From the IMG/VR virus record IMGVR_UViG_3300037067_002514, positions 1 to 64,000 of that record: a stretch of 64,000 nucleotides of DNA; one strand, 5' to 3'. A program made the translations under genes and the position numbers. Positions 40,033 through 61,295 of the stretch are shown here, one piece after another (the stretch's first letter is position 1; every line of letters begins with the position of its first letter). Source of the DNA: a virus. Lineage: Duplodnaviria > Caudoviricetes. The notes beneath the pieces are model-generated. The model was not told the origin of the DNA, searched no databases, and saw only the letters and a program-made list of their open reading frames with translations.

Positions 40033-40899
40033 CTAAAACCTAGGAATTCTACCAAAAAACTTTCTTACTACACTTCCTTGTGATGTAACAAACCCATAAC
40101 CCTGTAAACCTATTTTAGTGTTAACTGTATTTATAATAAATACTTCTTTTCCAGATTTAGATATAAAGGTATGTCCACGATATTTAGTTTTATTATACTC
40201 TATTGTAGTAAAGTTATCCCTTAATATAGTACTTCCAGCATTAATCTTTGCTACCATTTGACTTATACTAGTAAAACATTTATTATAAGCACTATGCATT
40301 TCTCTAGTATAGTTATCCTTAAAGTTATTTAATATCTTAAATCCGTGATTTTCAGGATAAGCCCCCATTCCTATATTTCCATTTTCTATTATAACCCAAA
40401 ATGGGGCTATACCCATTAATTCCATCATATCTAGACGACTATTAACAGTATCAGCATATTTTGTGCTTTCACCTAGGTACCATGAGTTATATAATTTCTT
40501 CCAACCATCTAAGGTACCCCTAAGAGGATAGGCCTCATACTGTATTTCTTGTAACTCTTTCCATCCACCAAGTATATCTGTGTTAATAAACATTGCTTGT
40601 ACTACCCCAGAATGATTATAATAAACACCAACATGGTGAGGTCTAGACAGTGCGTCTACTAGGACTGATTTGTACCTTGGAAAGTTCTTAAACTCCCTTA
40701 TAGAGTCCATAGCACTAATAAATTCATCCTGTATTTGCTTATTAAGCTCTTTAGCTGTATTTAATACAACAGAATCTACAATAGCTTTAGAATCTAAATA
40801 CAATGTTGGATACATTAAGTTGTTAAATTCCGTTACCCCAAGGGAAAGAAGTATACCTTGTGGGCTAAAATTACCAATATCATGGAAGAACTCTTCCAT
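40033..40899 (-). CDS. Putative neck/tail-joining protein
   Basis: 288 aa, between head-closure-like and terminator genes; assigned by position only. Confidence 0.45.
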   Translation of the reverse strand: MEEFFHDIGNFSPQGILLSLGVTEFNNLMYPTLYLDSKAIVDSVVLNTAKELNKQIQDEFISAMDSIREFKNFPRYKSVLVDALSRPHHVGVYYNHSGVVQAMFINTDILGGWKELQEIQYEAYPLRGTLDGWKKLYNSWYLGESTKYADTVNSRLDMMELMGIAPFWVIIENGNIGMGAYPENHGFKILNNFKDNYTREMHSAYNKCFTSISQMVAKINAGSTILRDNFTTIEYNKTKYRGHTFISKSGKEVFIINTVNTKIGLQGYGFVTSQGSVVRKFFGRIPRF

Positions 40900-41118: not shown

Positions 41119-42684
41119 CTACTCCTTACTACCCTCTTTAGCTACTATTCTTAACCTATCAACATTAGGTATGCCCTTTTTGGTTATTCTTTGAGGGTAT
41201 AGTATTCTATCATCTACGTGTATTTCTTTTATTATATCTAGTTGTTCCTCTGTCAAGTCATCGTTTGATATTGTTATTATACAGTCACCAGCTAATGTGC
41301 TTCCAGCAATTCCATGTTCTAAAATATCACCAGATAACCATCTTACATGAGATTTTATAGTTACTGTAGAATTACTAGAAGGAAGGTAATAAAGACCACT
41401 ACAGTTATTAACTCCAAACAAATTTGCAGTATATGTATGACTTCCTTCTACCTCAATGTTATATACCTTTAATGTCCTACTTGTACTACTAACTGCCTTA
41501 ACAACCATCATATAGTATCCATTGTATATACCAGAACCCCGTGAATATGTACTGTTAATCCTATACCCTACATGGTAAGACTTTAAATGATGTATACCCT
41601 TAGCATCTGTTCTGCTCTCACTAGAAAATATATATGGTTTATAACCACATCTTACTAATAGATCAAAAAGTTGGTATGATAATATTTTTGATACTGTAGT
41701 AAATGTATATTCATTTCCATCTTTATGACCATCACCATCTACTAGAGCCTTTACTAGAACATCATTAAAGTCAGTATTAATAAATTCTTTAGGTATAATC
41801 TTATTTTCTGCTAAATTCCCACATTTTTTTAATAATAGGCATAATTTACTTGAGTGTACCTCTAAACATATACTGTTCTCTGTTCTACTAGTTAGTCTTG
41901 AATTTGCGTTAAATAACTCTTTACATATCTTAGATATTCTATCTGCTACATCCTTTTCATCCTTGTTTAAAGCAAACTGTACTGTTCTTGGATATTCATC
42001 ATTACTAACACAACCCTCAGCAATAAACCACCCAATAAGATAAACTAAATCTTCTGTTATGGCATAAGAATATTCTTTTTCGTGGTATTTATATGGGTTA
42101 CTAAAGCATATTTCACTATATTTTTTTACATCACATATAGGGTATAACAGGGTATCTCCAACTTCTATGTCTATTGCTGCTTTATCAACTATTTTAAACC
42201 TACCATCTTTAGGTTGTCTTGAGTAATAACACCCCCTTCTTGGGGTACAGGTTGGTAAACACTGTATATTTCTGCAACTATGGGGGTATTTATACTTCTC
42301 TAGGACTTTAAAAGTATGATTACCCGTACACTCTACACCCTCTATATTTTTGTAGGTCTCTATAGATACCATAATACCAGTATAATCTCTACTAAATGTA
42401 TTAATAACTTTATACTTATTACCAGAACTAGAGTAAACAGTGTCACCAAGGATTATATCTTGTATATTTTTAAACCCTTCAGTAGTATTTACTAGTGTAT
42501 CTTCCTTGAAACAGACTTCGCAGAAACTATCTAGACTTGTTTGATTAACTTCATCAAATAAACCACCAGAAGAGCATACTGGACATACATTACCAGAACC
42601 TACTAGGATAAAGTCTACATTTCTTCCTATAGCCTCTCTTATCTCTTCCTTTATAGTTTTTGTTTCTGGAAATGTTATTGACAT
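41119..42684 (-). CDS. Putative head-closure/stopper-type neck protein with CxxC...CxxC motif, intein-containing (151 aa spliced)
   Basis: Extein IREAIGRNVDFI...CPVC...FCEV|CSGLYY...HVRW...GDCIITI...IHVDDR. The position downstream of the adaptor fits a stopper protein. Confidence 0.6.
   Translation of the reverse strand: MSITFPETKTIKEEIREAIGRNVDFILVGSGNVCPVCSSGGLFDEVNQTSLDSFCEVCFKEDTLVNTTEGFKNIQDIILGDTVYSSSGNKYKVINTFSRDYTGIMVSIETYKNIEGVECTGNHTFKVLEKYKYPHSCRNIQCLPTCTPRRGCYYSRQPKDGRFKIVDKAAIDIEVGDTLLYPICDVKKYSEICFSNPYKYHEKEYSYAITEDLVYLIGWFIAEGCVSNDEYPRTVQFALNKDEKDVADRISKICKELFNANSRLTSRTENSICLEVHSSKLCLLLKKCGNLAENKIIPKEFINTDFNDVLVKALVDGDGHKDGNEYTFTTVSKILSYQLFDLLVRCGYKPYIFSSESRTDAKGIHHLKSYHVGYRINSTYSRGSGIYNGYYMMVVKAVSSTSRTLKVYNIEVEGSHTYTANLFGVNNCSGLYYLPSSNSTVTIKSHVRWLSGDILEHGIAGSTLAGDCIITISNDDLTEEQLDIIKEIHVDDRILYPQRITKKGIPNVDRLRIVAKEGSKE
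41404..42513 (-). mobile_element. Intein 5 (370 aa) with LAGLIDADG endonuclease, in the putative neck protein
   Basis: CFKEDTLVNT...CTGNHTF...GWFIAEG...ALVDGDG...VYNIEVEGSHTYTANLFGVNN, +1 Cys. Confidence 0.92.
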
Positions 42685-45014
42685 ACCTTCTTACTCACCC
42701 TGTTAGAATTTACCTCTTCTAGAATAATCTTATCAAATTTACCAGCCAGGTACTTCCAACTAAATCTTTCTTGCTGTACTAGATCATATGCCTTTTTACC
42801 ATATTCCTTTACCTTTTCTCTATTGACATACAAGTCATCTAGTATTCTAGCCATATCCTCTGTATCCACTACAGCACCTTCAGTATTAATCCCACCAGTT
42901 AGAACTTCCCAATCCTTTATCTTAATCAGAGGGGCAGTTCCTGTCCATATTTCCTTTAATGCACTATTATCTGCTACCACTTGTGTAATTCCACAAGCTG
43001 CACTTTCACACGGTGAAAGACCCCATCCCTCTCCAGCAGAAGCCATCACATTTACATCAGCTATGTTATATATCTTGCATAACCCATCTAAAGGTAAGCC
43101 TTTATCTGGTCTTATTATGTTCTGATCAGTATACGTTACTCTATCTTGTATACCCCATCTTTTAGCTAGATCAACAAGATTCCACCCTAAATCATTTAGA
43201 CAGTTGTGAACACATAGGAACTCTGTGTTATATGTATGAGTTGGGTCTGTCTCAAGATTATATACTATTCCAGTATATTTTTCTACACTAGTACTAATAA
43301 CAGGAACATAGAAGTAGTTATCATCACTCCAGATACGAGAAAAACTCTTTGACTTAAACCCTATATTTTCCTCTAGTATAAAGGACATTTCTCTCTTCTG
43401 TAACCCACCAGCATAAAGGGTGTACCCGTAAAATCCATCTGTGTCAGGACAAGTTTTTCTTAAGGATGCTACTATTCCTAATCTTAAAAGAACATACTTT
43501 AATTGGTAAATAAGGTTAATTGATACTGAATAATAACCAAAGCTCAAACCAGTAAAACACCCATCACCATCATATAATCCCTTAACAAAAGACCTTAATA
43601 ATGAAGTATCACTATAAAGTATAAAATCTGGTATAAATTTATTATGTGCCCCTGCCCCAAAAGTTGTTCTAAACCACTCAGAGATACTCTTTGAACAAAA
43701 AACTAAATTACCACCATTTTTACTAGTACTATACCATTTTCCTTTCTTACTAAAGTACTTATTCATAGCATAGTCAATAAAAGATATTAAATCCCTTTCC
43801 TTTATATTGAGGCTAAAAGAAATATTATTCCCACTGGAACTACCCTCTGCAACATACAACCCGAATAACCTTGATAAATCAGCGTTAAGTGAGAGACTAT
43901 TAAATTTTATGTCAGTAGATATGGGTTCTACCTTTGGCTTAGGTATTGCTACAAAGTCTGTGTCTGATAGATCAGAAGCATTTATAAACTCTGTTTTATA
44001 CCTCTCATAAAACCTTTTACCACAATTTGTAGTAATAATCCCAGATTTAAGAGTTTTAAACCTTGCCTTACAAGCTTTGGAACAAATAGTCTTTTTACCA
44101 TTATAGCATTTCTTACCTTTTACACCTAATACTGGATGTTCTGGGGTAACTAAAATATCTTCTGAACCTTGACATTTTAGCCTTATTACGTCACCTGTGT
44201 ACGGTCTACTAATAGTATCAATAACATTACTAGCATTACCACTGGAGTCTAAAACTTTATCCCCTATAATAACATCCTGTATGCTCTTGGGAATCCCATT
44301 AGATGTTACCACTTTAGTACCTGGAATAAAACAAGTATGTAGGTATACCTGTATATTGTTCCTATCAGCACTGGGCTTACTATTCAACCATGTAGCACAA
44401 CCTTTTAAAAACAAGTCAAGTCTCTTTCTAGGCTGGTTCCTGTTTAAGTTCATCACTACAAATGCTTCACTAGGTATGCCATTTATAAATTTCCTAGCAT
44501 CTAGCATAGGATAAAAAGAATCAGTATCAACCCCATGACCTATAATATCAACCTTATCTACCTCTTGAGTGGCTAGTATTCCATCCCTAGCATAAGTAGT
44601 ATAAGTAACCATTCTAGTACCAGAATCGTTTATTATCTTAACCCATTGTGGTGCTACTGGAAGAGCGTCAACTGGTGAGTAAGAGATCACTCTATTTCCC
44701 TCTGGAATTTGCTTTACTATTTCAGATACAATCCATAGATCATTATTTATAACTATAATATCAGGTTTCTCTTTTGATATGACTTCAGCTACACGGTCTA
44801 TACCAAATACATTACCCCTTGCTTTAGCTGGGTATATTCTGAATATACCTTCATAACAATGAGGGTCTCCTATTTGTTGATTAACACCTAGTACTGATAT
44901 ATCATATCTACCTAAAGAATATAAATTCTCTAGTATAGCTTGAGAAACTCTTCCGAACCCTGTACTAGCTGCTGGACTATCACCACACCATAATAACTTA
45001 ATCTTACCTTCCAT
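42675..45014 (-). CDS. GT-B (GT4-like) glycosyltransferase, intein-containing (402 aa spliced)
   Basis: TGFGRVS, IGHGVDTDSF, NRNQPRKRLD, YNIADVNV..SAGEGWGLSPCESAACG. Confidence 0.9.
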   Translation of the reverse strand: MEGKIKLLWCGDSPAASTGFGRVSQAILENLYSLGRYDISVLGVNQQIGDPHCYEGIFRIYPAKARGNVFGIDRVAEVISKEKPDIIVINNDLWIVSEIVKQIPEGNRVISYSPVDALPVAPQWVKIINDSGTRMVTYTTYARDGILATQEVDKVDIIGHGVDTDSFYPMLDARKFINGIPSEAFVVMNLNRNQPRKRLDLFLKGCATWLNSKPSADRNNIQVYLHTCFIPGTKVVTSNGIPKSIQDVIIGDKVLDSSGNASNVIDTISRPYTGDVIRLKCQGSEDILVTPEHPVLGVKGKKCYNGKKTICSKACKARFKTLKSGIITTNCGKRFYERYKTEFINASDLSDTDFVAIPKPKVEPISTDIKFNSLSLNADLSRLFGLYVAEGSSSGNNISFSLNIKERDLISFIDYAMNKYFSKKGKWYSTSKNGGNLVFCSKSISEWFRTTFGAGAHNKFIPDFILYSDTSLLRSFVKGLYDGDGCFTGLSFGYYSVSINLIYQLKYVLLRLGIVASLRKTCPDTDGFYGYTLYAGGLQKREMSFILEENIGFKSKSFSRIWSDDNYFYVPVISTSVEKYTGIVYNLETDPTHTYNTEFLCVHNCLNDLGWNLVDLAKRWGIQDRVTYTDQNIIRPDKGLPLDGLCKIYNIADVNVMASAGEGWGLSPCESAACGITQVVADNSALKEIWTGTAPLIKIKDWEVLTGGINTEGAVVDTEDMARILDDLYVNREKVKEYGKKAYDLVQQERFSWKYLAGKFDKIILEEVNSNRVSKKVCQ
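43203..44333 (-). mobile_element. Intein 6 (377 aa) with LAGLIDADG endonuclease, in the glycosyltransferase
   Basis: LHT|CFIPGTKV...VTPEHPV...GLYVAEG...GLYDGDG...VYNLET..THTY...VHN|C. Confidence 0.95.
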
Positions 45015-45023
45015 TCCTCTCCT

Positions 45024-45704
45024 TTACCAGACTTTAATCTTGTTTTTGACAATTCTAGGTATAGTAAATACCTCGTCAGCACTATTAACAACTATTATGG
45101 CATACCCTATAGTTCCATGAAAGTCCATTGGTACAGTTGAAAAGCAACTCTTAAACTTACTAGGGTTACTATAGTTATATTGATATCTTAGTGGGGTATG
45201 TAAATGACCAGAATAAAATGCCCTTACTTTATCAGTAAGAAACTCATTAGCAACACCAGATGGGAATACCTCAAATGGGTGATGGGAAAATACTATATGA
45301 TAGTCCTGACCAGATAAGCTTTTCATAAGCCAATCATACTGTTCTGTATCATTTTTTAAAGAACTATACCACCCTTCTGCGTGTCTATGACCTATATATG
45401 ATGTATCAAGAAAATCAAGGGTATAACCATTAATACTTAAATTTTTAAACCTTGAACCAAAGTCATCAACACTATATTTACCAAAATCACCAGGCATAAC
45501 AATAACCCTGTGATTTATTTTACTAATTGATTCCTTTGCAATGTTAAATGATTCTTCTGAATCATCATGGGTAATGTCACCAGTTATAACAACTACATCA
45601 ACCTTTTCATGATTAATATTGTCTATCATTGGTTCCAGTATATTCTCAAAAGGTCTAATATGTAAATCTGATAACTGTAGTGCTACAAGTTTTAATTTAT
45701 CCAT
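45024..45704 (-). CDS. Calcineurin-like metallophosphoesterase (Icc/CpdA-like)
   Basis: SDLH, TGDITHD, SHHP and GHLH motifs; the usual GNHD motif reads GDFG. Confidence 0.8.
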   Translation of the reverse strand: MDKLKLVALQLSDLHIRPFENILEPMIDNINHEKVDVVVITGDITHDDSEESFNIAKESISKINHRVIVMPGDFGKYSVDDFGSRFKNLSINGYTLDFLDTSYIGHRHAEGWYSSLKNDTEQYDWLMKSLSGQDYHIVFSHHPFEVFPSGVANEFLTDKVRAFYSGHLHTPLRYQYNYSNPSKFKSCFSTVPMDFHGTIGYAIIVVNSADEVFTIPRIVKNKIKVW

Positions 45705-45722
45705 TCCTCTCCTATTTATATA

Positions 45723-46202
45723 CTACCTATCAAAGTCCTGAACCCAACCATAGTTTCTATGTACCTTAGCTTGGGCTAATTTTATCGGAAGCATCCTATT
45801 TAGTTCATTAATATCCTCAGTAAGACTAGATGATAACTGCTTAGACCCCTCTATATTAGAGTAGCTAACTTCATCATCCTTCCAAGATGCAGTACTACTA
45901 GATTGAGTATTCTTCTTACCTGACTTTAATATAATTGATGCCATTAATACTATGGCTCTTTTATCCTTACTTTGTATAACTGGTGGTGTACTAAACTCAA
46001 ACGTACAATTAGGATTTCTGGTAACTACACCATCTGCTGAAATGTAATACCTGTTACTCCACCTAGTCATTAAGGCTTCAACAGAATCCATAAGAAGACT
46101 ATGTAATACCTCATCAGAGTATGTCTTTGTGCTAGTATTATCACCTATATGATTTCTTAATGGAAGTATAAGAGTTTCTAAATTTGATACAGTATATGCC
46201 AC
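45723..46202 (-). CDS. Head-tail adaptor-like protein
   Basis: LRNHIGD....YSDE.L pattern and helical acidic character typical of adaptors; follows the capsid genes. Confidence 0.65.
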   Translation of the reverse strand: MAYTVSNLETLILPLRNHIGDNTSTKTYSDEVLHSLLMDSVEALMTRWSNRYYISADGVVTRNPNCTFEFSTPPVIQSKDKRAIVLMASIILKSGKKNTQSSSTASWKDDEVSYSNIEGSKQLSSSLTEDINELNRMLPIKLAQAKVHRNYGWVQDFDR

Positions 46203-46220
46203 TATTACCCCCTTATACTA

Positions 46221-46249
46221 ATTATACCACATGATACGCTATATGTCAA
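46221..46249 (-). promoter_or_regulatory. Consensus sigma70/sigmaA promoter with extended -10, inside the virion gene block
   Basis: TTGACA (46249-46244), 17 nt, TATAAT (46226-46221) preceded by TGG; upstream of the adaptor gene. Confidence 0.8.
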
Positions 46250-46253
46250 TAGA

Positions 46254-46517
46254 TTACATTGAATTACTAACGTTTATTACCTGCCTATCTATATGCATAC
46301 CATCATCAACATTAAATTTAATCTCTACTAGATATGTACCAGATTCTGATGGGGTAAACATTTCATCATTTAATCCAGAGCATGTTGTAAACTCACCACT
46401 AGCAACTACTGTGGTATCAAGACAGTTAAATATATTATATATACCAGATGTAATGGTATATTCACCATCTAAGGTAGTTTCTGTATAAAATGGTTTTGAC
46501 TCACCAACATACCACAT
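46254..46517 (-). CDS. Small Ig-like virion protein
   Basis: 87 aa beta protein with FTP..SGTYLVEIKF.V pattern. Confidence 0.55.
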   Translation of the reverse strand: MWYVGESKPFYTETTLDGEYTITSGIYNIFNCLDTTVVASGEFTTCSGLNDEMFTPSESGTYLVEIKFNVDDGMHIDRQVINVSNSM

Positions 46518-46532
46518 AAATCCCCTAAATAA

Positions 46533-46569
46533 AAATATAGAACAGGTACTTACTATCTGTTCTATATTT
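46533..46569 (-). terminator. Probable intrinsic terminator
   Basis: Perfect 13-bp inverted repeat AAATATAGAACAG/CTGTTCTATATTT followed by TTATTT on the minus strand. Confidence 0.6.
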
Positions 46570-46586
46570 AATACTGCATTAATCTC

Positions 46587-47021
46587 CTACTTATCTAGTT
46601 CTTTTAATCTTTCCTCTATTATCCCTATAGTCTTAACTGGTTTATTTCCAGCCTTAGCAAAGGTAAGGATTCTTTTAATAGGGACTATTGAAGTGAAATC
46701 CTTTAGCTTAGTTTTTAATTTAAGGGGTGACATCTTTAAAATATCAAGTAGATCACCATCAGATATAGAGTTTGTAGTGTCTACATTTATTGAGTAATCA
46801 GATATTGCTATAAGATACCCGTTCTCTACAGTTTTACTATTATACTTTAAAAAGAACTTCTCCGCCTCCTTATTAGGTATTTCTATCATGGTAGAATCTG
46901 CACCACTATTAGGGTCACCATATAAAAGAAACTCTTCCTTCTCGTTGCGGGAATTTAATAGTACCCCTCCAACTTTTCCCTTTATTGCTTTTTTAAAAAA
47001 CTTTGGATATACTCCTTCCAT
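46587..47021 (-). CDS. Hypothetical protein downstream of the major capsid gene
   Basis: 144 aa, good SD; no motif recognised. Confidence 0.7.
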   Translation of the reverse strand: MEGVYPKFFKKAIKGKVGGVLLNSRNEKEEFLLYGDPNSGADSTMIEIPNKEAEKFFLKYNSKTVENGYLIAISDYSINVDTTNSISDGDLLDILKMSPLKLKTKLKDFTSIVPIKRILTFAKAGNKPVKTIGIIEERLKELDK

Positions 47022-47090
47022 TTAAACTCCTTTATTTTTATTTAAAGTCGTAATTTTGAACCTCTCTCCCTTACGACTATTATCCAAATA

Positions 47091-47111
47091 AGGGGGGTAT
47101 AATACCCCCCT
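47091..47111 (-). terminator. Probable terminator after the major capsid gene
   Basis: AGGGGGGTAT-T-ATACCCCCCT hairpin 5 nt after the stop, followed by TATTT. Confidence 0.65.
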
Positions 47112-47116
47112 AAAAA

Positions 47117-48043
47117 CTAGGTATGATCTAATCTAATTATTACAGCATTTTCTAGGGCATCCAGTATCATACCATGCTGTACATATGTCCTTATGTACCA
47201 GGTAGGAGGTGCTGTAGACATTTCAGTCCACTGATCTTCTTTAGGCTCACCGTAGGTAATAAACTCACCAAGTTTGTCACCAACTACAACTACTAGATCA
47301 TCCCTGATCAGTTCATTCCTATCGTAAGGATTATCGTAGATTTGAGGTAAAGCCATAAAGGTAGTACCGTAGTAAGTACCTACCCAACCAGTTCTTTGAA
47401 TCTCTTCTAGAACTGAGTTTACTGCTACCATAGGTGCTGTAGATTCAGTAGAACCAACTGCTTGTCTATATCCAGCGAACTTAGTTACAGGTGCTAGGGC
47501 AGTCCTTCTTCCTACTACTGCTTTAACACCACCAGCTTCGTCATTGATCTTATCAATAGCTGATTCTAGTACTGTTCTAGTAATAGGGGCAGTCATGTAA
47601 TAGAAGTTAGTGTCATCATCAATAGAGGCTAAGGTGTATAAGGCTGTCATAATTCTTGTCTGGAAGAAATCATTCAGTTTTGCTTTCATTTCAGCCCTGA
47701 TTGATTCAACTGAACCAATTTCACCTGATTCAATTTCCCACAGATTATGGGATACCTGTACGTAATGCTGATCTATGTTGTAATTTACAACATCTTTTAA
47801 GGTTATCTGACTAGACAAAGTTGTCTGACCTGGCACAAACTGTCTTACTTCAATACCCCTTCTAACCTTTTTAACTATAGCATCACCAGGTTTTAATGCC
47901 CTAGTATTAAGGAACATACCAGCAATATCCAATGTTATATGCTTTGGGTCTACATAGCTTACTATTAATTCAGCTAAGGCTTTCTTATCTGTTTTTGCAA
48001 CAGAAGACATAGCTACTTTAAGCTCTTCTCTAGAAATTGTCAT
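47117..48043 (-). CDS. Major capsid protein (HK97-fold likely)
   Basis: 308 aa from ATG 48043 (SD GGAG); follows protease, scaffold and decoration genes and precedes a terminator and the adaptor. Assigned mainly by synteny. Confidence 0.75.
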   Translation of the reverse strand: MTISREELKVAMSSVAKTDKKALAELIVSYVDPKHITLDIAGMFLNTRALKPGDAIVKKVRRGIEVRQFVPGQTTLSSQITLKDVVNYNIDQHYVQVSHNLWEIESGEIGSVESIRAEMKAKLNDFFQTRIMTALYTLASIDDDTNFYYMTAPITRTVLESAIDKINDEAGGVKAVVGRRTALAPVTKFAGYRQAVGSTESTAPMVAVNSVLEEIQRTGWVGTYYGTTFMALPQIYDNPYDRNELIRDDLVVVVGDKLGEFITYGEPKEDQWTEMSTAPPTWYIRTYVQHGMILDALENAVIIRLDHT

Positions 48044-48132
48044 TGTAATCTCCTGCTTGCCTATAATGATATAAAACCACATGCAAGCGTTTAATTTATA
48101 TTTGGGCAGGAATGGTTACCTGCCCATATCTT

Positions 48133-48693
48133 TTAGTTCTCTATTTTTATAGTTAGTTTCTGGTTAGTTGAATCATACTCTAATACCTTGGCTACTTTAC
48201 CAGCAGCACTATACTTCTGCCATAGACCAGTACCTGAAGCTACTGATATCTTATCACCAACTACAAATGAATTAGCTGTGTAGCATCCAGACTCAACAGT
48301 ATAAATACCCTCGTCATAAGCCAACATAAGGGCACCACTAAGGATTGTTTGAGCTTCTTGGAATCTAGGGTGAGTAAGTCTCATTGTAAGACTGGAAATA
48401 GGTGAATCACTGTCACCAGCTACCCAACCCCTTAAAGTATAAGGCTGTGATGTAGTATTACTTGATTCATCCTGAGTAGGTAGTGTTTCATAAATAGGTG
48501 TTTTCTCGTTATACACCCTAAAGTTTGCAATATACCTTGCTTCTGGGTCTTCATCAGAAGTAGGATATTTAGCACCGATTACAACATCTGGGCTTGACTT
48601 TCCAGTTGCAGCACAAAGAACAACAGCCCTACCAGCAACTATGTCCTGTTGGGCTACGCAAGGAATCGCTGTACCCATTAATTTGATTTCCAT
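48133..48693 (-). CDS. Putative capsid decoration/cement protein
   Basis: 186 aa; A..DI.AGRAVV and GDKISV..GTG patterns; immediately upstream of the MCP. Confidence 0.6.
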   Translation of the reverse strand: MEIKLMGTAIPCVAQQDIVAGRAVVLCAATGKSSPDVVIGAKYPTSDEDPEARYIANFRVYNEKTPIYETLPTQDESSNTTSQPYTLRGWVAGDSDSPISSLTMRLTHPRFQEAQTILSGALMLAYDEGIYTVESGCYTANSFVVGDKISVASGTGLWQKYSAAGKVAKVLEYDSTNQKLTIKIEN

Positions 48694-48717
48694 CTATTTC
48701 ACCTCATTAGCGTTTAT

Positions 48718-49329
48718 TTACTTTAATTCTGATAATCCTTTCTTAAGGATTTCTATGGCCTGAATGTTCTCTGTGTTATACATTGGAGGAACCTTGTCTT
48801 CTTTTTCTGAACTAGAAACTTTGCTACTTTTCTTTAAAGAAGACATCTGAGATACTGTGAATTCAAAAACTTCCTCGGACATAGCTAACCATTTGTCTGT
48901 ATCTTTTTCAATACTGAAATCTAGCCCAGCTTCTGTAACCTTAGCCTGTCTTGTACTAATTAACTTAGCTGTAGCCTGTGTCTTTTCAGTTTCTGCTTTA
49001 AAAACTCTTAAAGTTTCAACTTCTGCTAATACCTCGGTTAAACTATTACTAGACTTTTCTAGTTCACTTTTTGATTCTTCCAGAGATTTAGTAAGAGTTT
49101 CAATCTGTGTACTCTTACCTGCTAGTTCTGTTGATAACTCTTCTATCTTCTTTTCTGATATAGAAAGCTTATCAGAGGTTTCCTTTAACAGTTTTTCTAA
49201 CTCTGTTACTTTATCTGTAAGTTCCATTTTCACCTCTTTATTTTCACTTATACTTAATATACCAACCTCTAGTACTTTTTTTATTTCTCTAAGTTGCTCT
49301 GTTGGTATTGTTGATAAATCTATTAGCAT
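48718..49329 (-). CDS. Putative scaffolding protein
   Basis: Long Glu/Lys coiled coil between the protease and decoration genes. Confidence 0.65.
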   Translation of the reverse strand: MLIDLSTIPTEQLREIKKVLEVGILSISENKEVKMELTDKVTELEKLLKETSDKLSISEKKIEELSTELAGKSTQIETLTKSLEESKSELEKSSNSLTEVLAEVETLRVFKAETEKTQATAKLISTRQAKVTEAGLDFSIEKDTDKWLAMSEEVFEFTVSQMSSLKKSSKVSSSEKEDKVPPMYNTENIQAIEILKKGLSELK

Positions 49330-49886
49330 TATAATCCTCTATTCTTTAACTCATTGTTTATCTGGTCTAGTAAATCCTTTGAACTTATTGAAAGTAGATT
49401 TGTTCTTCCTTCATACGCTGGATTTGACACAGCAGTTATAGCTTTTGTTACTACTCCAGTAAGCCAACTAACCCCATCTTCTAGTACTGAATCCTTGTAC
49501 CTTAATTCCCAAGAAAAATTTATATCTTTACCTGCTGAACTCTCATGCTTAAGAAATTCAACTAATTCTGGAAACTCATCATTGTATAAGGCACCATGAG
49601 CTATGATTTTGTCATTATCTTCCTTTCCTTCTATAATTATACCTACTGGTAATGAATTTGCATGTCCATAAATCATACCGTTAAAGTTAGCCTTTATAGG
49701 CATATAACTCATAGACTTTATTATATTAGGAAACTCAGATTTCTTTATACCTTGCTTGTTAGCATTTGGTTTATCGTCAGTAAATACTAATTCTATAGGG
49801 GTTAAAAGAGGATTTGAATACTCTGCAAGGCATATACTACTATCTATTTTAGCTTTTATATTTAGGGTTAAGTTTGACACAAGCAT
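49329..49886 (-). CDS. Putative prohead maturation protease
   Basis: GHA..LPVG (His), FSWE (Ser) and AV.NPAY pattern of HK97-type proteases. Confidence 0.65.
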   Translation of the reverse strand: MLVSNLTLNIKAKIDSSICLAEYSNPLLTPIELVFTDDKPNANKQGIKKSEFPNIIKSMSYMPIKANFNGMIYGHANSLPVGIIIEGKEDNDKIIAHGALYNDEFPELVEFLKHESSAGKDINFSWELRYKDSVLEDGVSWLTGVVTKAITAVSNPAYEGRTNLLSISSKDLLDQINNELKNRGL

Positions 49887-49931
49887 ACCTCACTAATAGT
49901 ACTCTATTATATATAAGCATATATTAGTTAA

Positions 49932-51023
49932 TTACTCACATATAGTTAATAAAACCTTATTAGTTACTGTACCCCATAAAAACTTTTCATTTTGTGAGTT
50001 CTTCTTTACTAGAGTAGATTTATGTAGTCTATATTCCCTGTCTCTATATAACTTTTCTAGTTTATTAACCATATCCTCTAATACTATCCTATCCCCAAAG
50101 TACTTAGAATTAGGTATACACTCTTTAGTTGATTTAATATAATCTACTGAATCCCCCCAAATATCTTTTAGATTCCCACAGTCAGTACAAAGGATGGGAA
50201 CACCACTTACAGAACTCTCTAAAAGAGGAAGTGCAAAGCCCTCACCCATAGTTGTACTACAATGTACATCAAAAGCGTTGTACATAACATTAAGGGTATA
50301 AAAATCTACATCCTCATGATTTATAAGAAGCTTATCACTTATATTATAATACTCTGCTAAATAGTTTAGGTCATAGCACGATTCATTGCCAGCAGTATGT
50401 ATTATTCCTAGTACATCATTTTTACCCATACTGAACTTTGAGAATGCTTCTATAAATAAATCAAATCTCTTTCTATAGGTGTTAGTACCAGTTATTCCAA
50501 CAACAAATGAACCAGATAGATTCATTTTATCCTTAGCATTTATATCCTTTTTAAACACCTCTGTATCTACCCCATGATACACTGGGGTAACCTTTCCACT
50601 ATATAGTTTACCTATCTCATTAGTTGAATAGTTTGTATAGGATAATATTGACTTTATACCTATAGTATTGAGTCTAGAAACGTCTTTATTAATTGGGGTA
50701 AAGTTAACTGGAAAGAAAGGTATAATATTTCCCCTATACTCAGTATGATCAAGATATTTTAGTATAATTCTGTCATCATTAAAAACAATTAAACAATCTG
50801 GTTCTTCTTCATCTATAACAGCCTGTAGACCACTAAAAGAGTACAGATCACCACCATTTTTAGCTGGATAAATGTAATAAGGGTATGGGTTCCTTTTCAT
50901 ACCATCATACCCTATACCATAAACCACTACTATATTATCCTTTGAAAGAATATTACATATATTATGAGTAACTATAGAAAATCCACTCAAAATACATGCA
51001 TCACCAACAAATAGTATTTTCAA
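49932..51023 (-). CDS. GT-B (GT4-like) glycosyltransferase, paralog of 42675..45014
   Basis: SGFSIVT, VYHGVDTEVF, TNTYRKRFD, YNAFDV..STTMGEGFALPLLESSVSG. Confidence 0.88.
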   Translation of the reverse strand: MKILFVGDACILSGFSIVTHNICNILSKDNIVVVYGIGYDGMKRNPYPYYIYPAKNGGDLYSFSGLQAVIDEEEPDCLIVFNDDRIILKYLDHTEYRGNIIPFFPVNFTPINKDVSRLNTIGIKSILSYTNYSTNEIGKLYSGKVTPVYHGVDTEVFKKDINAKDKMNLSGSFVVGITGTNTYRKRFDLFIEAFSKFSMGKNDVLGIIHTAGNESCYDLNYLAEYYNISDKLLINHEDVDFYTLNVMYNAFDVHCSTTMGEGFALPLLESSVSGVPILCTDCGNLKDIWGDSVDYIKSTKECIPNSKYFGDRIVLEDMVNKLEKLYRDREYRLHKSTLVKKNSQNEKFLWGTVTNKVLLTICE

Positions 51024-51032: not shown

Positions 51033-51515
51033 TTACACTATAATTGACCCATAGGCTTGTCTATTATCCTTTTTTGCTTCAGATAAGGAAGCTACTGGGA
51101 TATACTCTATTTTCCTCTCTACTATAACTGGATTACTAAACAAGATTTCACCACTGTCTGATATAGTATAATCTAGCTTGCATAGAAAACTTGTATTGTT
51201 AAGATACACTTCTGCTACAATGTACGTATCAAATGTGTCCATAATCCATACCCTCTGTGTTGGTACTGGTTGATTATCAAGGTTGTCAGGAAAAAGTCTA
51301 TTTAACGCTTTCTGTATTTTATTTTCTGTTTCTCTTAGACTTTCTTCACTAAACTCTGTAACCCCAGCACTAGATTCCTTCTTACTCTTTTCATACTGAA
51401 CCTTACAAATAGCAATAGCACTACTCTTATTCTTACCAGTTTTCATTACAGAATCTACACAACTCTCCATGAATTTTATTGTGTTCTCGTTCTCATTTTT
51501 TATACCATATGGCAT
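51033..51515 (-). CDS. Hypothetical head-morphogenesis-associated protein
   Basis: FMESC...SAIAIC N-terminus and a D.F..YIV...LDYTI..GEI.FS.P..VERK..Y C-terminus, seen near phage proteases (recollection, not a search). Confidence 0.55.
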   Translation of the reverse strand: MPYGIKNENENTIKFMESCVDSVMKTGKNKSSAIAICKVQYEKSKKESSAGVTEFSEESLRETENKIQKALNRLFPDNLDNQPVPTQRVWIMDTFDTYIVAEVYLNNTSFLCKLDYTISDSGEILFSNPVIVERKIEYIPVASLSEAKKDNRQAYGSIIV

Positions 51516-51525: not shown

Positions 51526-51996
51526 CTATAGTTTATTACCTAATAATTTTGCAATAACATGACACACTTTAAGGTGCATATCCTCTGCGTATTCATACAT
51601 TCCAACTTTAGTAGGAGTTAGCATAGACACATCACACATATCCATTAACTTACCCCCATCAAATCCAACTATGGATATTGTGTATCCTATAGAACTAGCA
51701 TAATTTACTGCATTGATAAGATTGGTAGAATTTCCACTAGCTGATATAACAATTAGTACATCACCCTCTTCAAATAGTACTTTCAGTTGATCTGAGAAGA
51801 TATAATCATATCCACGATCATTCCCTATCCTAGTTATATTTGATGTACTATCACAGAGGGATATTGCCTTATACCCCCTGCTCATTAAATCATTAGCTAG
51901 GTGGGAAGCCGTTGAAGCACTACCACCATTACCTGCTATATATATGAACCTATCCTTTTTTAATAGCTTAACAGCATCATATACAGTTCCTAGCAA
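51526..51996 (-). CDS. gmhA: Phosphoheptose isomerase-like SIS protein
   Basis: GNGGSASTASH, GND.GYD.IFS.QL, GDVLIVISASGNS.N, GFDGG, ED.H. Confidence 0.88.
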   Translation of the reverse strand: MLGTVYDAVKLLKKDRFIYIAGNGGSASTASHLANDLMSRGYKAISLCDSTSNITRIGNDRGYDYIFSDQLKVLFEEGDVLIVISASGNSTNLINAVNYASSIGYTISIVGFDGGKLMDMCDVSMLTPTKVGMYEYAEDMHLKVCHVIAKLLGNKL

Positions 51997-52952
51997 CTAA
52001 ATACCTCCTTTATTCTTGGGATATTTCTGTATATATTTCCCTCATAGTACAAGATTATCCCTTTATAGTACGCATCTGCTATACTTCTTATACCATCCTC
52101 AACAGTATACCTACACTCAAACCCCAATACTTTTTTTATCTTATCAGCATTAACATGATAAGACCTTAAATCATCTGATTCAACCTTGTTAATAATTATG
52201 TCATTTCCAATAACACCTCTTACTAGTTGTGCTAACTCATCTATAGTATAGTTACTATAAAGGACATTAAAAGCCTCTGAATCAACTAAGTTCCTAGGTG
52301 CTGTAAGCATCATCTTATATACCCTAACCATATCAAGCACATTAAGAGTAGGTCTCATCTGTGAACCCCCAAATACAGTCATTTTACCCGTTGTTAGGGC
52401 ACTTATAGTAAGAGCATTAACAGCTAAATCTAACCTTAACCTTGGGGAATAACCACATAAAGTTGATGGTCTAACAAATACATATTCTGTATTATTTAAT
52501 TCTGCCCTAATATACTCTTCATTCATTATTTTATGAAGACCATAAGTATCTACTGGGTCAGCTTTCTCTTCCTCTGTTACACTAACGGTTAATGGTTTAA
52601 TTCCATATTGACTTGTTGAACTTGCCACTATTAATCTCTTAATACTGTTTATATTACAAGCTTTAACAATATTGTAAGTAGATGAATAATCTATTGACTT
52701 AGCTAAGTCAATATCTATATCACCTGGGGCACCAGTAGAAGCAAGATGTATAATAGCATCGCAACCTTCACTGTACTTAACAACTTTATCAGTATCCCTA
52801 ATATCACCAATTATTTGGGTTAACCTATGATTATAAGGAAGTATATGCCTATATATGTACATGTCATATGTAATTACATCATGCTCTTTAAGTAGCTCAG
52901 GTACTAGTATACTCCCAACATACCCTGCTCCCCCAGTAACAAATACCCTCAT
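51990..52952 (-). CDS. NAD-dependent epimerase/dehydratase (extended SDR)
   Basis: TGGAGYVG, HLA, SSTSQYG, YGLHK (YxxxK), RLDLAVN, RP.LNV.D. Confidence 0.9.
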   Translation of the reverse strand: MRVFVTGGAGYVGSILVPELLKEHDVITYDMYIYRHILPYNHRLTQIIGDIRDTDKVVKYSEGCDAIIHLASTGAPGDIDIDLAKSIDYSSTYNIVKACNINSIKRLIVASSTSQYGIKPLTVSVTEEEKADPVDTYGLHKIMNEEYIRAELNNTEYVFVRPSTLCGYSPRLRLDLAVNALTISALTTGKMTVFGGSQMRPTLNVLDMVRVYKMMLTAPRNLVDSEAFNVLYSNYTIDELAQLVRGVIGNDIIINKVESDDLRSYHVNADKIKKVLGFECRYTVEDGIRSIADAYYKGIILYYEGNIYRNIPRIKEVFSC

Positions 52953-53920
52953 TAAATATCACCCACCTTAACTAATACTTTACCACAAAATCCACTTCTA
53001 AATGAATCTATTGCCTTATTTATACTATTAAACTCAAATAATTTAAGCTTAATTTTAGATACATCTATTATTCTAAATAAGTTATAAATATCATAGTCAG
53101 ACTGTATACCACCACCCCAAGAACCTATTATTCTCTTACCTTTTATAAAATCAAATGGTTTAACATTAAAAGAATCCGATGGTGGTGGATTACCTACTAG
53201 GATGAGAGTACCATTATCTACTAATGAGTTAAATGCTTGCTCTATTGACTTTACACTCCCTGTAGTATCTATAGCACAGTCTACTTTATCATATATATCT
53301 GTACTATCTGCCCCCAAGGTAATACCATATTTTTCCCTATCTTTATTAGTATCAGTAACATAAGTTTTAAATCCCCGATACTTTGCACCTAGGACACAGG
53401 CAGAGCCTATATTTCCCACACCATGTATCCTTATTGTTAAACCTGACGCATAGTTAAATACTGTTCCAGCACCTGTTGGTATCATACACCCAAATAGGGG
53501 TAGACTATAAAGCATTTTTTTTGGCATCTTACTTTTACCAAAGAACTTAACTAGTCTATTCTCTGGAACTATAGTATACTCTTGAAAGGTAGTTACTGCA
53601 CCTGCATTATATCCCTTATATACTGGTGCATCGGCATTTAATCCATCTACCTTAATCCAAGTAATTACAACTAAATCATTATCTTTTACCTTTGATACAT
53701 CCTCCCCTACCCCAATAACCTCACCAACTGCCTCATGACCAAGTAGGTGAGGTATATACTCTGAAAATTTATTACCAGATATCTCGTTTATTTGAGAACC
53801 ACAAATACCTGTACATAGTACTTTTACGAGTACTTGACCTCTTTTCAATTCTGGAAGTTCAATAGAAACTATCTCTAATGGCTTATTTATCTCTGTTAAT
53901 ACGGCAGCTTTAGTGTACAT
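52952..53920 (-). CDS. Zn-binding alcohol dehydrogenase (MDR)
   Basis: GQVLVKV..TGICGSQ, LLGHEAVG, GCMIPTGAG, GVGNIG. Confidence 0.9.
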   Translation of the reverse strand: MYTKAAVLTEINKPLEIVSIELPELKRGQVLVKVLCTGICGSQINEISGNKFSEYIPHLLGHEAVGEVIGVGEDVSKVKDNDLVVITWIKVDGLNADAPVYKGYNAGAVTTFQEYTIVPENRLVKFFGKSKMPKKMLYSLPLFGCMIPTGAGTVFNYASGLTIRIHGVGNIGSACVLGAKYRGFKTYVTDTNKDREKYGITLGADSTDIYDKVDCAIDTTGSVKSIEQAFNSLVDNGTLILVGNPPPSDSFNVKPFDFIKGKRIIGSWGGGIQSDYDIYNLFRIIDVSKIKLKLFEFNSINKAIDSFRSGFCGKVLVKVGDI

Positions 53921-53926
53921 TATATT

Positions 53927-54571
53927 TTAGGGAATAAACCAATAAAAATCCCCTGTATAACCCTCCTCTTTAAATAATTGTTTCCACTCTTCTACACTAT
54001 GAATAGTTTCAGCAGTTATGTTCCACTCTAGCATCCTTTTCTTCTCTTCTTCATTACTGTATGCATCTACAGTAATAAATGTCTTTTTTCCTATCCTCTG
54101 TATTTCCCTTACTGCCCTCCTGCATTCATCTTCTTTTAAGTTATGAATAGTGTTAATACATATTACTAGGTCAAATGATTTATCCGAATATGGTATATTA
54201 TTAACATTTGCCTGTATTGCAACTATTCCCTCTGGACAACAATTAACTGCATACTCTGAAATATCCATACCATATAGTTTAAGGTTATTATTATGCTGTT
54301 TAAAATCATATAGCATATAACCTTTAGCCATACCACAATCAAGTATTTTATCCCCATCACCTAGATTATAGTATTCTATAAATCTTTTAGTAACAGGAAT
54401 CCATCTTCCATCATAAATATATCCTCCATAGCAAATACGAGGTACTTTCATGTCAAAGTATCTCCAATCATATAGTCTTGCTATAGCTCTCTGTTCCTCA
54501 CTCTTCTCTTGTGCCCTAGTACTCGTATCCCTCTTTATCTTAGGATAATCTACTAGTAAATCTACTTCCAT
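53927..54571 (-). CDS. Class I SAM-dependent methyltransferase
   Basis: ILDCGMAKG, GMDISEYA, PYSDKSFDLVICINTIHNL. Confidence 0.9.
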   Translation of the reverse strand: MEVDLLVDYPKIKRDTSTRAQEKSEEQRAIARLYDWRYFDMKVPRICYGGYIYDGRWIPVTKRFIEYYNLGDGDKILDCGMAKGYMLYDFKQHNNNLKLYGMDISEYAVNCCPEGIVAIQANVNNIPYSDKSFDLVICINTIHNLKEDECRRAVREIQRIGKKTFITVDAYSNEEEKKRMLEWNITAETIHSVEEWKQLFKEEGYTGDFYWFIP

Positions 54572-54572
54572 T

Positions 54573-55382
54573 CTAACCTTCCTTTTTCATTTTATAACAA
54601 TACTCTGCTGTAGGAAATACACCACTTCTTACCTCACTAGCATATTCCATAAAAGCCTTCTTTATTTGTTCAGATATGTTTACATATCTCTTTGCAAACT
54701 TAGGTTTGAATCCTTCAAAGGTACCTAATAGATCACTAGATAGTAATAATTGACCATCAACATATTGACCAGCACCAATACCATATACTGGAATACTTAA
54801 TCTTTCTGTTATTATCTTTCCAGTTTCTGCTGGAACCCCCTCTACTAATAATATTGAAGCCCCTGCCCTCTCTACTGCCTTAGCATCATCAACAAGAATC
54901 TCTGCTGACTCTTGAGTATTCCCTTGTACTTTAAATCCACCCATCTGGGATGAACTTTGAGGTGTAAGACCAATATGACCTATAACTACCATACCAGAAT
55001 CCACTATACCCTCTATTTGAGGTGCTACTCTTTTACCCCCTTCTAGTTTAATAGCATCAACCCCCAATCTATAGAATTTACCAGCATTCTCTATTGCTGA
55101 TTCTACAGATTTTTGATATGACATAAAAGGCATATCCCCTACTACAAAGGTGTTAGGGGCAGCCCTTCTTACTGCTTCTGTATGATACAACATTTGTTCC
55201 ATAGTTACAGGCATTGTACTTGGGTACCCATATATTATCATACCTACTGAATCACCTACTAGAATCATATCTAATCCTGCTTGTTCTGCTAGGCTGGCTG
55301 TAGAATAATCATAAGCTACTACCCATGTAACCTTTTCCTTAACTTCCTTCATTTTTACTAGGTCTAGTATACTTTTCTTCAT
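54573..55382 (-). CDS. panB: Ketopantoate hydroxymethyltransferase (PanB family)
   Basis: AYD, ILVGDS.GM, GDMPF, KLEGG, GHIGLTPQ, GGFKVQG, GIGAG, DGQ. Confidence 0.95.
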   Translation of the reverse strand: MKKSILDLVKMKEVKEKVTWVVAYDYSTASLAEQAGLDMILVGDSVGMIIYGYPSTMPVTMEQMLYHTEAVRRAAPNTFVVGDMPFMSYQKSVESAIENAGKFYRLGVDAIKLEGGKRVAPQIEGIVDSGMVVIGHIGLTPQSSSQMGGFKVQGNTQESAEILVDDAKAVERAGASILLVEGVPAETGKIITERLSIPVYGIGAGQYVDGQLLLSSDLLGTFEGFKPKFAKRYVNISEQIKKAFMEYASEVRSGVFPTAEYCYKMKKEG

Positions 55383-57395: not shown

Positions 57396-57396
57396 T

Positions 57397-60431: not shown

Positions 60432-61295
60432 TTACCAACCTTTCCTTTTATTAGGGTATGATCTACACCTACATTTACAAGTATTACACTCTTGGGTATT
60501 TAATAAGGATAAACCCTCATCTATCAGGTAATCTATACTATTGAAATCATTGTTATTTATACAGTCTATAACCTTTACATAATTACTCTTTAGAATGTAC
60601 CCCCACCATACAGTTATAAAATGTTCAACGTTATACCCCATTAGCTTAAAAAACTGGTCATAATCCTCTCTTAAATACCTTGAAAAGTGATCTCCCCCTA
60701 ATAAAGGTGTATCAGTATTACATTTATGTGATATAGGGCGAACATTAGCCCACACACTCCACATGTGATTTAGCATAGTTTCATATGACATTAGAAGTTC
60801 TAGATTGTAGTATGTATCACCCCCATACTTTTCTACTGTATCCTTATAAGCCTTATATAAAAATGAATTACAGGGGGATAGTCTTGAAAAGTACCCACTA
60901 TTGTAAATATCCATTCCAAAACCAAATTTCTGAGCACTATTATTTGTGATTATGTTTCCCCAAGGTATTGATATACCCCAAATCCTAGACTTATCTACAC
61001 TATCCCAAGATTTAACAAGGTAATCATACCACTCTCTGTAGAATACAACATCACTATGAGCATAAGCTATTATGTCATACTCTCTAGTAAATGCTTTAAA
61101 CCCCTTATATATCAGGGTATCAGTAGGACTAATATTGTCAATCTTTACAAAGTTTATCCTATCACTGATGTTGCACTCTTTATTGTGGGATACTACATAA
61201 ATATCTTGATCATAACTACTATCTAGAAGTGTCCTGATACACTCTTTATATGTTTCAGTAGGTGCAACTACAGGTATTATTAAAGCAGTATTCAT
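60432..61295 (-). CDS. GT-A-like glycosyltransferase
   Basis: LIIPV N-terminus and YDIIAYAHSDVVF (DxD-like) region; divergent. Confidence 0.55.
   Translation of the reverse strand: MNTALIIPVVAPTETYKECIRTLLDSSYDQDIYVVSHNKECNISDRINFVKIDNISPTDTLIYKGFKAFTREYDIIAYAHSDVVFYREWYDYLVKSWDSVDKSRIWGISIPWGNIITNNSAQKFGFGMDIYNSGYFSRLSPCNSFLYKAYKDTVEKYGGDTYYNLELLMSYETMLNHMWSVWANVRPISHKCNTDTPLLGGDHFSRYLREDYDQFFKLMGYNVEHFITVWWGYILKSNYVKVIDCINNNDFNSIDYLIDEGLSLLNTQECNTCKCRCRSYPNKRKGW

Follow-up and report, generated by a model that had tools for sequence, protein, structure and literature searches.

The window analysed here, the first 64 kb (64,000 nucleotides) of one 90,043-bp viral contig (IMG/VR record IMGVR_UViG_3300037067_002514, a member of the Caudoviricetes), carries two glycosyltransferase (GT) genes of family GT4, here called GT#1 and GT#2, among its head and neck genes. 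Both are kept as a pair in related phages, and the slot between the portal gene and GT#1 holds a nucleotide-sugar cassette whose content changes from relative to relative. The best reading of this arrangement, which we hold with moderate confidence, is that the two enzymes glycosylate the virion proteins of the phage itself.

The two GT4 genes, their family and their inheritance

The two genes and the intein that interrupts the second of them are as follows (aa, amino acids).

49932..51023, minus strand: GT#1, GT4 (GT-B, predicted retaining type) glycosyltransferase of 363 aa (PF00534, 39.4 bits, 6e-10; phrog_2170, 3e-31)
42675..45014, minus strand: GT#2, GT4 glycosyltransferase of 779 aa (PF00534, 9e-7; phrog_2170, 1e-32)
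43203..44333, minus strand: LAGLIDADG intein of 377 aa inside GT#2 (Pfam LAGLIDADG_3, 3.7e-13; Intein_splicing; Hint)

The matches of both proteins to PF00534 (Glycos_transf_1, gathering cut-off 26.4 bits) and to phrog_2170 bear out the two GT4 genes reported in an earlier note on this DNA, which had been made from the sequence alone. GT#2 reached 29.0 bits on Glycos_transf_1, its domain being split by the intein, and an intein-free GT#2 orthologue reached 37.4 bits; a search of NCBIfam with the GTs gave only generic GT4 matches below threshold. The phosphate-binding motifs HGVDT and RKR(F/L)D are present in both proteins, together with an EX7E motif that reads GEGFALPLLES in GT#1 and GEGWGLSPCES in GT#2, and the catalytic motifs are constant across the orthologues of either gene, save for HAVDT in three GT#2 orthologues. 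Both families align by profile over their full length with the crystal-structure sequence of B736L (residues 1-390), and both conform to the two-Rossmann-domain architecture expected of GT-B enzymes. Judged by these features, the two genes encode intact GT4 (GT-B, EX7E) glycosyltransferases, for which a retaining mechanism is predicted.

The best solved match of both families was B736L of chlorovirus NY-2A (PDB 3OY2/3OY7), at E 2.8e-37 for the GT#1 family and 2.9e-35 for the GT#2 family, full length in both cases. The next-best PDB matches had E values of 8e-16 and 5e-4, respectively, which puts B736L far ahead of any cellular GT4. Common to B736L and the window enzymes are an N-terminal SG(F/Y)G, PDxxxxxND, HxVDT, RKRLD and GEGFGL...E, and by these profile matches the window enzymes are assigned to a virus-associated GT4 subfamily that also holds the chlorovirus proteins B736L and A546L. 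B736L, which differs in coming from a eukaryotic giant virus, is a GT4 enzyme that binds GDP-mannose and is 81% identical to A546L of PBCV-1, and chloroviruses glycosylate their own capsid with their own enzymes (PMC9614988).

The paralogy of the two genes, also claimed in the earlier note, was upheld. BLASTP matched the GT#2 exteins to GT#1 in two stretches, one of 224 aa with 29% identity (E 1e-18) and one of 165 aa with 25% identity (E 5e-11). In a FastTree phylogeny with 113 sequences of the family, one group with a support of 97 is made up of gp14 of Synechococcus phage S-CBS4 and the clades of GT#1 (11 rows) and GT#2 (6 rows). GT#1 has the longer branch in this tree, which does not settle the branching order inside the group. 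On the strength of the tree, the two genes are taken to be true paralogues. The note had rested their relationship on shared HGVDT, RKRxD and GEGxxL..E motifs; these are indeed present in both proteins, but they are GT4-wide and also found in B736L, and therefore they speak for family membership and an intact active site, not for paralogy.

The finding of the earlier note also omits the 377-aa intein. It begins with CFIPG (Cys1), ends with LCVHN (terminal His-Asn) and is followed by Cys+1; its insertion point lies between LHT and C in the C-terminal Rossmann domain, leaving exteins of residues 1-227 and 605-779, which would make a protein of 402 aa if spliced. The GT#2 orthologues of the relatives align across this junction with no insert. 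In a metagenome contig from the source groundwater (run X1), an intein-free allele of the gene (region 43193-44352) lacks exactly 1131 nt and reads VIYLHT/CLQ at the junction, which is the predicted spliced one, so that intein-bearing and intein-free alleles coexist in one groundwater sample.

A profile scan of IMG/VR detected 230 viral contigs with a member of the GT family, 11 of which form the window's own clade (GT#1 identity 39-48%). By tblastn, five loci of this clade (L005, L008, L011, L013 and L014) have the same order, starting with the 160-aa gene, GT#1, protease, scaffold, cement, major capsid protein (MCP) and 144-aa gene and continuing with the 159-aa gene, phosphoesterase, GT#2, Cys4 protein and the 72-aa, 288-aa, 161-aa and 391-aa genes. 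Each of the four complete relatives, which measure 133-153 kb and of which two have terminal repeats, has exactly two GT copies; the fifth contig stops at GT#1. Pairwise divergence follows that of the MCP for both genes (Spearman 0.69 for GT#1 and 0.80 for GT#2). The pairwise identity of GT#2 (60-82%, with 60-64% for the intein-free orthologues) is about like that of the protease and cement proteins, while GT#1 orthologues are 40-73% identical and evolve faster than GT#2. Judging from synteny and divergence, the morphogenesis block has both GTs as core genes that are passed on vertically.

L092, a more distant contig of 44 kb whose MCP is 47% identical and which was binned with a Brevinema metagenome-assembled genome (MAG), carries just one GT. 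This GT stands where GT#2 does, closely packed among its neighbours in the order MCP-184-161-GT-147-77-324-149-394-242-tape measure, the numbers being protein lengths. The contig lacks GT#1 and the phosphoesterase, and its sugar genes lie between the small (TerS) and large (TerL) terminase genes. Since its single GT stands at the GT#2 position, the neck-side position would be the ancestral one and GT#1 a later duplicate.

Two rearrangements were seen among the relatives. In L005 (11323-12135) the 159-aa gene has moved from the neck side to a place between GT#1 and the protease gene, with a stretch weakly like the 87-aa open reading frame (ORF). In the complete relative G004 (the record of L006, C1:1706-18539) about 15.5 kb separate GT#2 from the upstream GT#1, against about 6.6 kb elsewhere, so that the head genes and the GT#2 unit are set apart by about 9 kb of additional DNA.

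The head, neck and sugar genes around the pair

All real genes of the window are carried by the minus strand. In the direction of transcription they begin with NrdD (with inteins), NrdG, a 190-aa protein, the large terminase and the portal; the 190-aa protein holds the position of a small terminase, and its orthologue precedes TerL in the relatives, and the terminase and portal both bear inteins. After the portal come the sugar cassette of about 14 kb, the 160-aa gene, GT#1 and the 185-aa, 203-aa coiled-coil, 186-aa and 321-aa genes, followed by the 144-aa, 87-aa, 159-aa and 226-aa genes, GT#2 and the 521-aa, 72-aa and 288-aa genes. A cupin, 110-aa, 161-aa and 391-aa genes, an HNH/Vsr-like endonuclease, a 245-aa gene and a 1559-aa tape measure gene complete this order. 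The head side of the block comprises the following genes.

51033..51515, minus strand: conserved protein of 160 aa, directly upstream of GT#1 (orthologues at the same position in 11/11 related loci, 33-41% identity)
49329..49886, minus strand: prohead protease-like protein of 185 aa (Atlas features match Peptidase_S78/S77 clusters, 0.94-0.96)
48718..49329, minus strand: scaffold-like coiled-coil protein of 203 aa (weak coiled-coil family matches; position between protease and cement/MCP)
48133..48693, minus strand: capsid cement/decoration-like protein of 186 aa (Atlas Phage_cement clusters, E217 gp24/Pam3 gp6)
47117..48082, minus strand: major capsid protein with HK97 fold, 321 aa (AF2 model and Foldseek)

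The earlier note had placed GT#1 directly before a protease, a scaffold, a decoration protein and the MCP, and this order held for all four, through the S78/S77 features, the coiled coil, the Phage_cement match and the HK97 fold. In the 185-aa protein, which has no Pfam match, His75 and Ser125 are invariant in nine orthologues and spaced like those of HK97-type proteases; the orthologues of the scaffold-like protein measure 213-325 aa; and the 186-aa protein matched the Phage_cement clusters with features at 0.96 and structures at TM 0.54-0.72. The model of the MCP required a 71-sequence alignment (pLDDT 69.5), an alignment of 8 sequences giving a pLDDT of 34, and in Foldseek against the PDB it had 362 matches at E<=1e-3, all of them to phage capsids or encapsulins (best E 1e-9). 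Profile searches of the PDB with the families of the protease-like, cement-like, MCP, 288-aa and 160-aa proteins gave nothing significant, the 160-aa protein had no match in Pfam or PHROG either, and a single-sequence scan of viral contigs with the MCP found no relatives.

The neck side begins with a terminator-like hairpin and a promoter match.

47093..47110, minus strand: terminator-like hairpin directly after the MCP stop codon (consensus scan)
46221..46249, minus strand: perfect extended -10 sigma-70 promoter match, TTGACA-17-TGGTATAAT, upstream of the 159-aa/phosphoesterase/GT#2 unit (consensus match)
45723..46202, minus strand: conserved protein of 159 aa, found ahead of the GT in the distant L092 as well
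45024..45704, minus strand: metallophosphoesterase of 226 aa (PF00149, 5e-9; DxH, GD and GHLH motifs intact)
41119..42684, minus strand: intein-split Cys4 protein of 521 aa (151-aa extein), downstream of GT#2 (Pfam intein and LAGLIDADG)
40033..40899, minus strand: conserved protein of 288 aa in the same unit as GT#2 (orthologues in 5 relatives)

GT#2 had been placed between adaptor and stopper-like genes, and this was not borne out: the gene upstream is a metallophosphoesterase, which led us to reject the 226-aa protein as a head-tail adaptor, and the gene downstream is the intein-split Cys4 protein. The nearest named families of the phosphoesterase are the class III phosphodiesterases SpdA/CpdA (below cut-off), with GpdQ (2dxl) at 2e-4; it is kept upstream of GT#2 in five relatives. 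The Cys4 gene overlaps the end of GT#2 by 10 nt, and intein-free orthologues of 147-155 aa follow the GT in all relatives, including L092. The 288-aa protein had no family match, and the searches made gave no assignment for any of the small proteins of the neck region.

The window holds four perfect promoter matches, all on the coding strand, against 0.15 expected, and in L005 a perfect match lies 15 nt upstream of the phosphoesterase gene. These sites, which are consensus matches, suggest that the phage may use strong host promoters of the sigma-70 type and that the host would be bacterial. The four sites (TTGACA-N16-18-TATAAT with a TG-extended -10) are at 6580-6609, 13680-13709, 13899-13926 and 46221-46249, all on the minus strand.

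On the other side of GT#1 stands the sugar cassette with its transferase.

51526..64000, on to 65525 past the window, minus strand: nucleotide-sugar cassette (Pfam)
64491..65525, just outside the window, minus strand: GT2 (GT-A) glycosyltransferase of the cassette (PF00535, 2e-11)

The cassette encodes a GmhA-like SIS protein, an epimerase, a zinc-dependent alcohol dehydrogenase, methyltransferases, PanB, an intein-split dehydratase, an HldE-like protein, two thiamine diphosphate (ThDP) enzymes and a short-chain dehydrogenase/reductase (SDR), that is, a heptose/ThDP/PanB set of about 14 kb of its own. A GT-A enzyme had been reported in the sugar cluster, and the only one that could be verified lies at 64491-65525, outside the window; the 287-aa ORF at 60432-61295 matches no family, and a phmmer search with it also gave nothing. 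In the relatives, the stretch from the portal to the 160-aa gene is taken up by other cassettes of at least three kinds, unrelated in content. Type A has a TagF-like glycerophosphotransferase, a fusion of NTP-transferase and GNAT domains, a class III aminotransferase and methyltransferases; type B has a DegT aminotransferase, a sugar C-methyltransferase, an FkbM methyltransferase, SDRs and a GT2; type C has an HldE-like gene and other genes. The type A cassette was located at L012:4099-9371 and also in L005 and L009, its TagF-like protein being a CDP-glycerol glycerophosphotransferase, and from these genes its product would be a phosphodiester-linked or amino-alcohol-type decoration rather than that of a sugar pathway.

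Regarding co-occurrence of the GTs with the sugar cluster, for which the earlier note had asked, the GT pair is kept in the relatives but the content of the cassette differs completely. This turnover in the slot between portal and GT#1 is consistent with selection on an exposed glycan. The GT#1 phylogeny does not visibly track the cassette type, and therefore the cassette sugar is not assigned to GT#1. The idea of a self-contained system of GTs and sugar pathway is partly right, although GT#2, with the phosphoesterase, heads a unit apparently driven by a promoter of its own.

Other observations concern inserted elements and small genes. The contig is unusually rich in inteins: NrdD and the large terminase have at least two each, and the portal, the sugar dehydratase, GT#2 and the Cys4 protein of the neck region are also interrupted. 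LAGLIDADG domains are present in most of these inteins, and the majority of the inteins are not found in the relatives. A cupin of 128 aa (39669-40055), absent from all relatives, lies among the neck genes beside the 110-aa gene (39328-39660), whose product has a membrane helix at its C-terminus and weak matches of the holin/XhlA-like kind; at the position of this product the relatives keep a small tail-anchored protein. The HNH/Vsr-like endonuclease gene (36826-37512) separates the 391-aa tail gene from the 245-aa gene as an insertion that is missing there in L092. Near-identical pieces of the window were found in manure and landfill metagenomes besides the source groundwater sample, which, together with NrdD and NrdG, points to anaerobic habitats. 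A host assignment from the MAG bins of MCP relatives (Brevinema, Atribacter, Pseudoxanthomonas, Ignavibacteriales) was dropped, the bins being inconsistent and probably reflecting binning noise.

The probable acceptor of the sugar

The enzyme family, the paralogy, the gene order and its conservation, the cassette turnover, the lack of membrane machinery and the intein were observed directly; the acceptor, the donors and the division of labour we infer, as follows. GT#1 and GT#2 would work in the host cytoplasm during particle assembly and transfer sugars onto virion proteins, the prime candidate acceptors being the capsid protein and the cement/decoration protein, with tail proteins also possible. 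GT#2 would be the ancestral copy after the capsid gene, which in the window clade stands behind the phosphoesterase gene and a strong promoter-like site, and GT#1 a later, faster-evolving duplicate at the 3' end of the hypervariable cassette. Because the GT#1 tree does not track the cassettes and these carry transferases of their own, the conserved GT4s may lay down the conserved inner sugar(s), while the cassette transferases (GT2 here, TagF-like or GT2 in the relatives) may add a lineage-specific outer sugar. The outcome would be a serotype-like glycan coat.

Virion glycosylation, as the earlier note had proposed it, is partly supported. In its favour are the vertical inheritance of the two core genes, the homologues in head or neck modules of unrelated siphophages, the likeness to the slot of mycobacteriophage Corndog and the soluble machinery; against it stand the missing Ser/Thr tag and the homologues outside head modules. 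Neither the window nor the corresponding blocks of the relatives encode a flippase, a polymerase, a polyprenyl-phosphate transferase or a multi-pass membrane protein, and therefore the pathway would end on a cytoplasmic acceptor.

Counting the window clade and L092, the GT lies in the head/neck block in about 9 of the 14 phage lineages examined, which is enriched but not universal. Among these there are S-CBS4 (portal-hypothetical-GT4-GT-methyltransferase...protease-MCP), Microcystis phage Mae-JY09 (MCP-hypothetical-GT4...adaptor), Pontimonas phage phiPsal1 (MCP-GT4-methyltransferase-GT2-neck), the group of L027, L042, L053 and L060 (protease-MCP-MCP-146aa-GT-adaptor), L016 (portal-324aa-GT) and the group of L079 and L081 (protease-MCP...GT...tape measure); the GT of L044 is probably also inside such a module. 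S-CBS4 gp14, the Mae-JY09 "RfaG", phiPsal1 gp10 and orf14 of Tetrasphaera phage TJE1 belong to the same GT4 subfamily (phrog_2170) at 24-36% identity, and the first three of these phages have it in the head/neck module with a GT-A and a methyltransferase alongside, as here. They differ from the window in having single copies and small or absent sugar-supply cassettes. In the literature searched, no experimental study of the GT4s of these four phages was found.

The closest arrangement with an established function is that of Corndog, whose virion-glycosylation cassette is proven (PMC12363180). It has the order methyltransferase-GT-GT-GT between gp32-34 and the MCP gp41, so that its cassette (gp35-38) occupies the portal-to-capsid slot, like the window cassette with GT#1, and combines several GTs with methyltransferase(s). 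The GTs of Corndog and Che8 are short (206-289 aa), Che8 gp108 being a fusion protein of 391 aa that matches the Corndog methyltransferase in its C-terminal half, and the mycobacteriophage systems have no dedicated nucleotide-sugar pathway of the window's size. Their glycans are reported on the C-termini of capsid and tail-tube subunits (Freeman et al. 2023, as cited in PMC12363180 and PMC12619734).

Several observations weigh against virion proteins as acceptor. No Ser/Thr-rich tail or shared C-terminal tag, such as mycobacteriophages possess, was detected on the MCP (...IR(L/T)Dxx, the final residues varying), the cement protein (...LTIKxx) or the 391-aa tail protein (...GNHS), and no Ser/Thr-rich window in the head proteins. 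BLASTP of Che8 gp108-110 and Corndog gp36-38 against all proteins of the genome gave a best E of 0.019 and no match to either GT4. The contig is only about 56% complete (CheckV). The acceptor of B736L is not known and the capsid glycans of NY-2A are without mannose (PMC9614988); likeness to B736L therefore gives no capsid acceptor. Family members also occur outside head modules or at their boundary: in TJE1 the GT and sugar genes lie upstream of TerS, outside the head module, in S-EIV1 the GT follows the primase, in L017 it is near a replication initiator, L019 has the order DNA polymerase-GT-GT-portal, and about 40 T4-like contigs (within L020-L084, e.g. L054:4579-6998) carry a tandem pair of GT4 genes flanked by an exonuclease and a gp55-like sigma factor.

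The order in this T4-like clade resembles the T4 order 47, a-gt, 55. Its exonuclease is phrog_69/Cas4-like, with UDP-glucose dehydrogenase and epimerases upstream of the tandem GT4s and baseplate wedge genes downstream. A recurrent pair of phosphoesterase and GT4 was considered and rejected, the T4-like "exonuclease" being unrelated to the window phosphoesterase (hhalign probability 0.1).

The strongest rival, which we nevertheless consider unlikely, is that the GTs act on a host molecule, which could be a protein or else an envelope precursor at the cytoplasmic face (an intermediate of teichoic acid, lipopolysaccharide (LPS) core or S-layer glycan). The late operon would set the timing of a late change in surface or physiology, for example receptor masking against loss of progeny on debris, or superinfection exclusion. 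The off-module family members fit such a role, as do the lipid-linked, small-molecule and polysaccharide acceptors that GT4 enzymes mostly use, the nearest named families (MshA, BshA and the GT4s of exopolysaccharide (EPS) and LPS synthesis, all below cut-off) and the TagF-like CDP-glycerol glycerophosphotransferase of type A, a teichoic-acid-type enzyme. However, neither an initiating transferase nor a ligase is encoded, any more than a flippase, in the window or the blocks of the relatives, no lysogeny context was seen in the regions read, and the vertical inheritance of the GTs with the capsid genes, at fixed positions and over deep divergence, is unusual for host-surface "moron" genes.

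It is less probable still that the GTs and the cassette glycosylate the bases of the phage DNA against restriction, the position next to terminase and portal then meaning modification before packaging. Phage DNA GTs (T4 alpha/beta-GT and the 5mYOX- or ThyS-associated GT-A and GT-B enzymes) are likewise phage-encoded, include some of GT-B fold and can have sugar-nucleotide genes. A point that counts against virion proteins and for DNA is that DNA-hypermodifying GT-B enzymes resemble MshA, BshA and PglH and can sit near the terminase (10.1101/2023.12.21.572611); moreover, T4 a-gt matches B736L in HHpred (PMC6024577), and various sugars made by phages have been described on DNA (PMC13326640). For the known routes of phage DNA glycosylation, hydroxylated or hydroxymethylated bases must be supplied by a ThyA homologue, or by a C5-methyltransferase with 5mYOX (10.1101/2023.12.21.572611; PMC13326640), and such enzymes are missing from most complete relatives. 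Among the five relatives that are at least 90% complete, three keep the GT pair and have no ThyA-like gene (PF00303), none has a C5-methyltransferase (PF00145), and none gave a Tet_JBP match (PF12851), a weak negative since the control of this last search was silent; in the known 56% of the window genome PF00303 was not found. Neither T4 a-gt nor b-gt is among the PDB profile matches at E<=1e-3, and the GTs are acidic overall (pI 5.1-6.1), which is weak evidence. Phage DNA GTs usually cluster with base-modification genes; the window GTs do not, their neighbours being sugar-pathway, morphogenesis and phosphoesterase genes. DNA glucosylation, which the earlier note had set aside, is disfavoured by these observations; two of the five relatives do have a ThyA-like gene. 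This ORF, of about 222 aa, occurs in L090 (G001:C1:20079-20312) and L091 (G004:C1:43691-43915), matches model positions 144-224 only, and could be a thymidylate synthase or a base hydroxymethylase.

It is very improbable that either GT or both are inactive, or are accessory "moron" genes lacking a conserved role, with the head location being an insertion hot spot: siphophage late operons do tolerate inserts, HNH and LAGLIDADG elements and a cupin gene lie nearby and GT#1 evolves faster than its neighbours, but the catalytic motifs do not vary between orthologues, the conservation of GT#2 equals that of the protease and cement proteins, the position is kept down to 47% MCP identity, and intein homing typically targets conserved genes, the intein-free allele keeping the exact junction.

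Meaning for phage glycosylation

To our knowledge, phage-encoded virion glycosylation has been demonstrated only in a few mycobacteriophages, with unrelated small GTs. What sets the present case apart is a conserved duplicate pair from the B736L-type GT4 family, together with the ancestral position on the neck side, the hypervariable slot for sugar genes and an intein in a glycosyltransferase. If the enzymes do glycosylate the capsid, they would represent a second enzymatic route, spread widely among cyanophages, actinophages and large uncultivated phages. They would also suggest a function that can be tested for the orphan chlorovirus enzyme B736L/A546L, and would explain why phage head operons contain large, quickly exchanged pathways for rare sugars. 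Soluble protein-glycosylating enzymes together with unusual sugar pathways may also be of use in glycoengineering. If the acceptor turned out to be DNA or a host molecule, position in a head module would be a poor predictor of function, which matters for many similar annotations.

A broader and more tentative proposal, which we regard as possible but doubtful, is that the B736L-type GT4 subfamily of tailed phages and chloroviruses is a general capsid-glycosylating enzyme, and that in this phage clade the GT pair with its swappable cassette makes a diversifying, serotype-like coat comparable to a "phage O-antigen". If this were true, virion glycosylation would extend far beyond the actinobacteriophages, into anaerobic environmental phages and exotic branched sugars.

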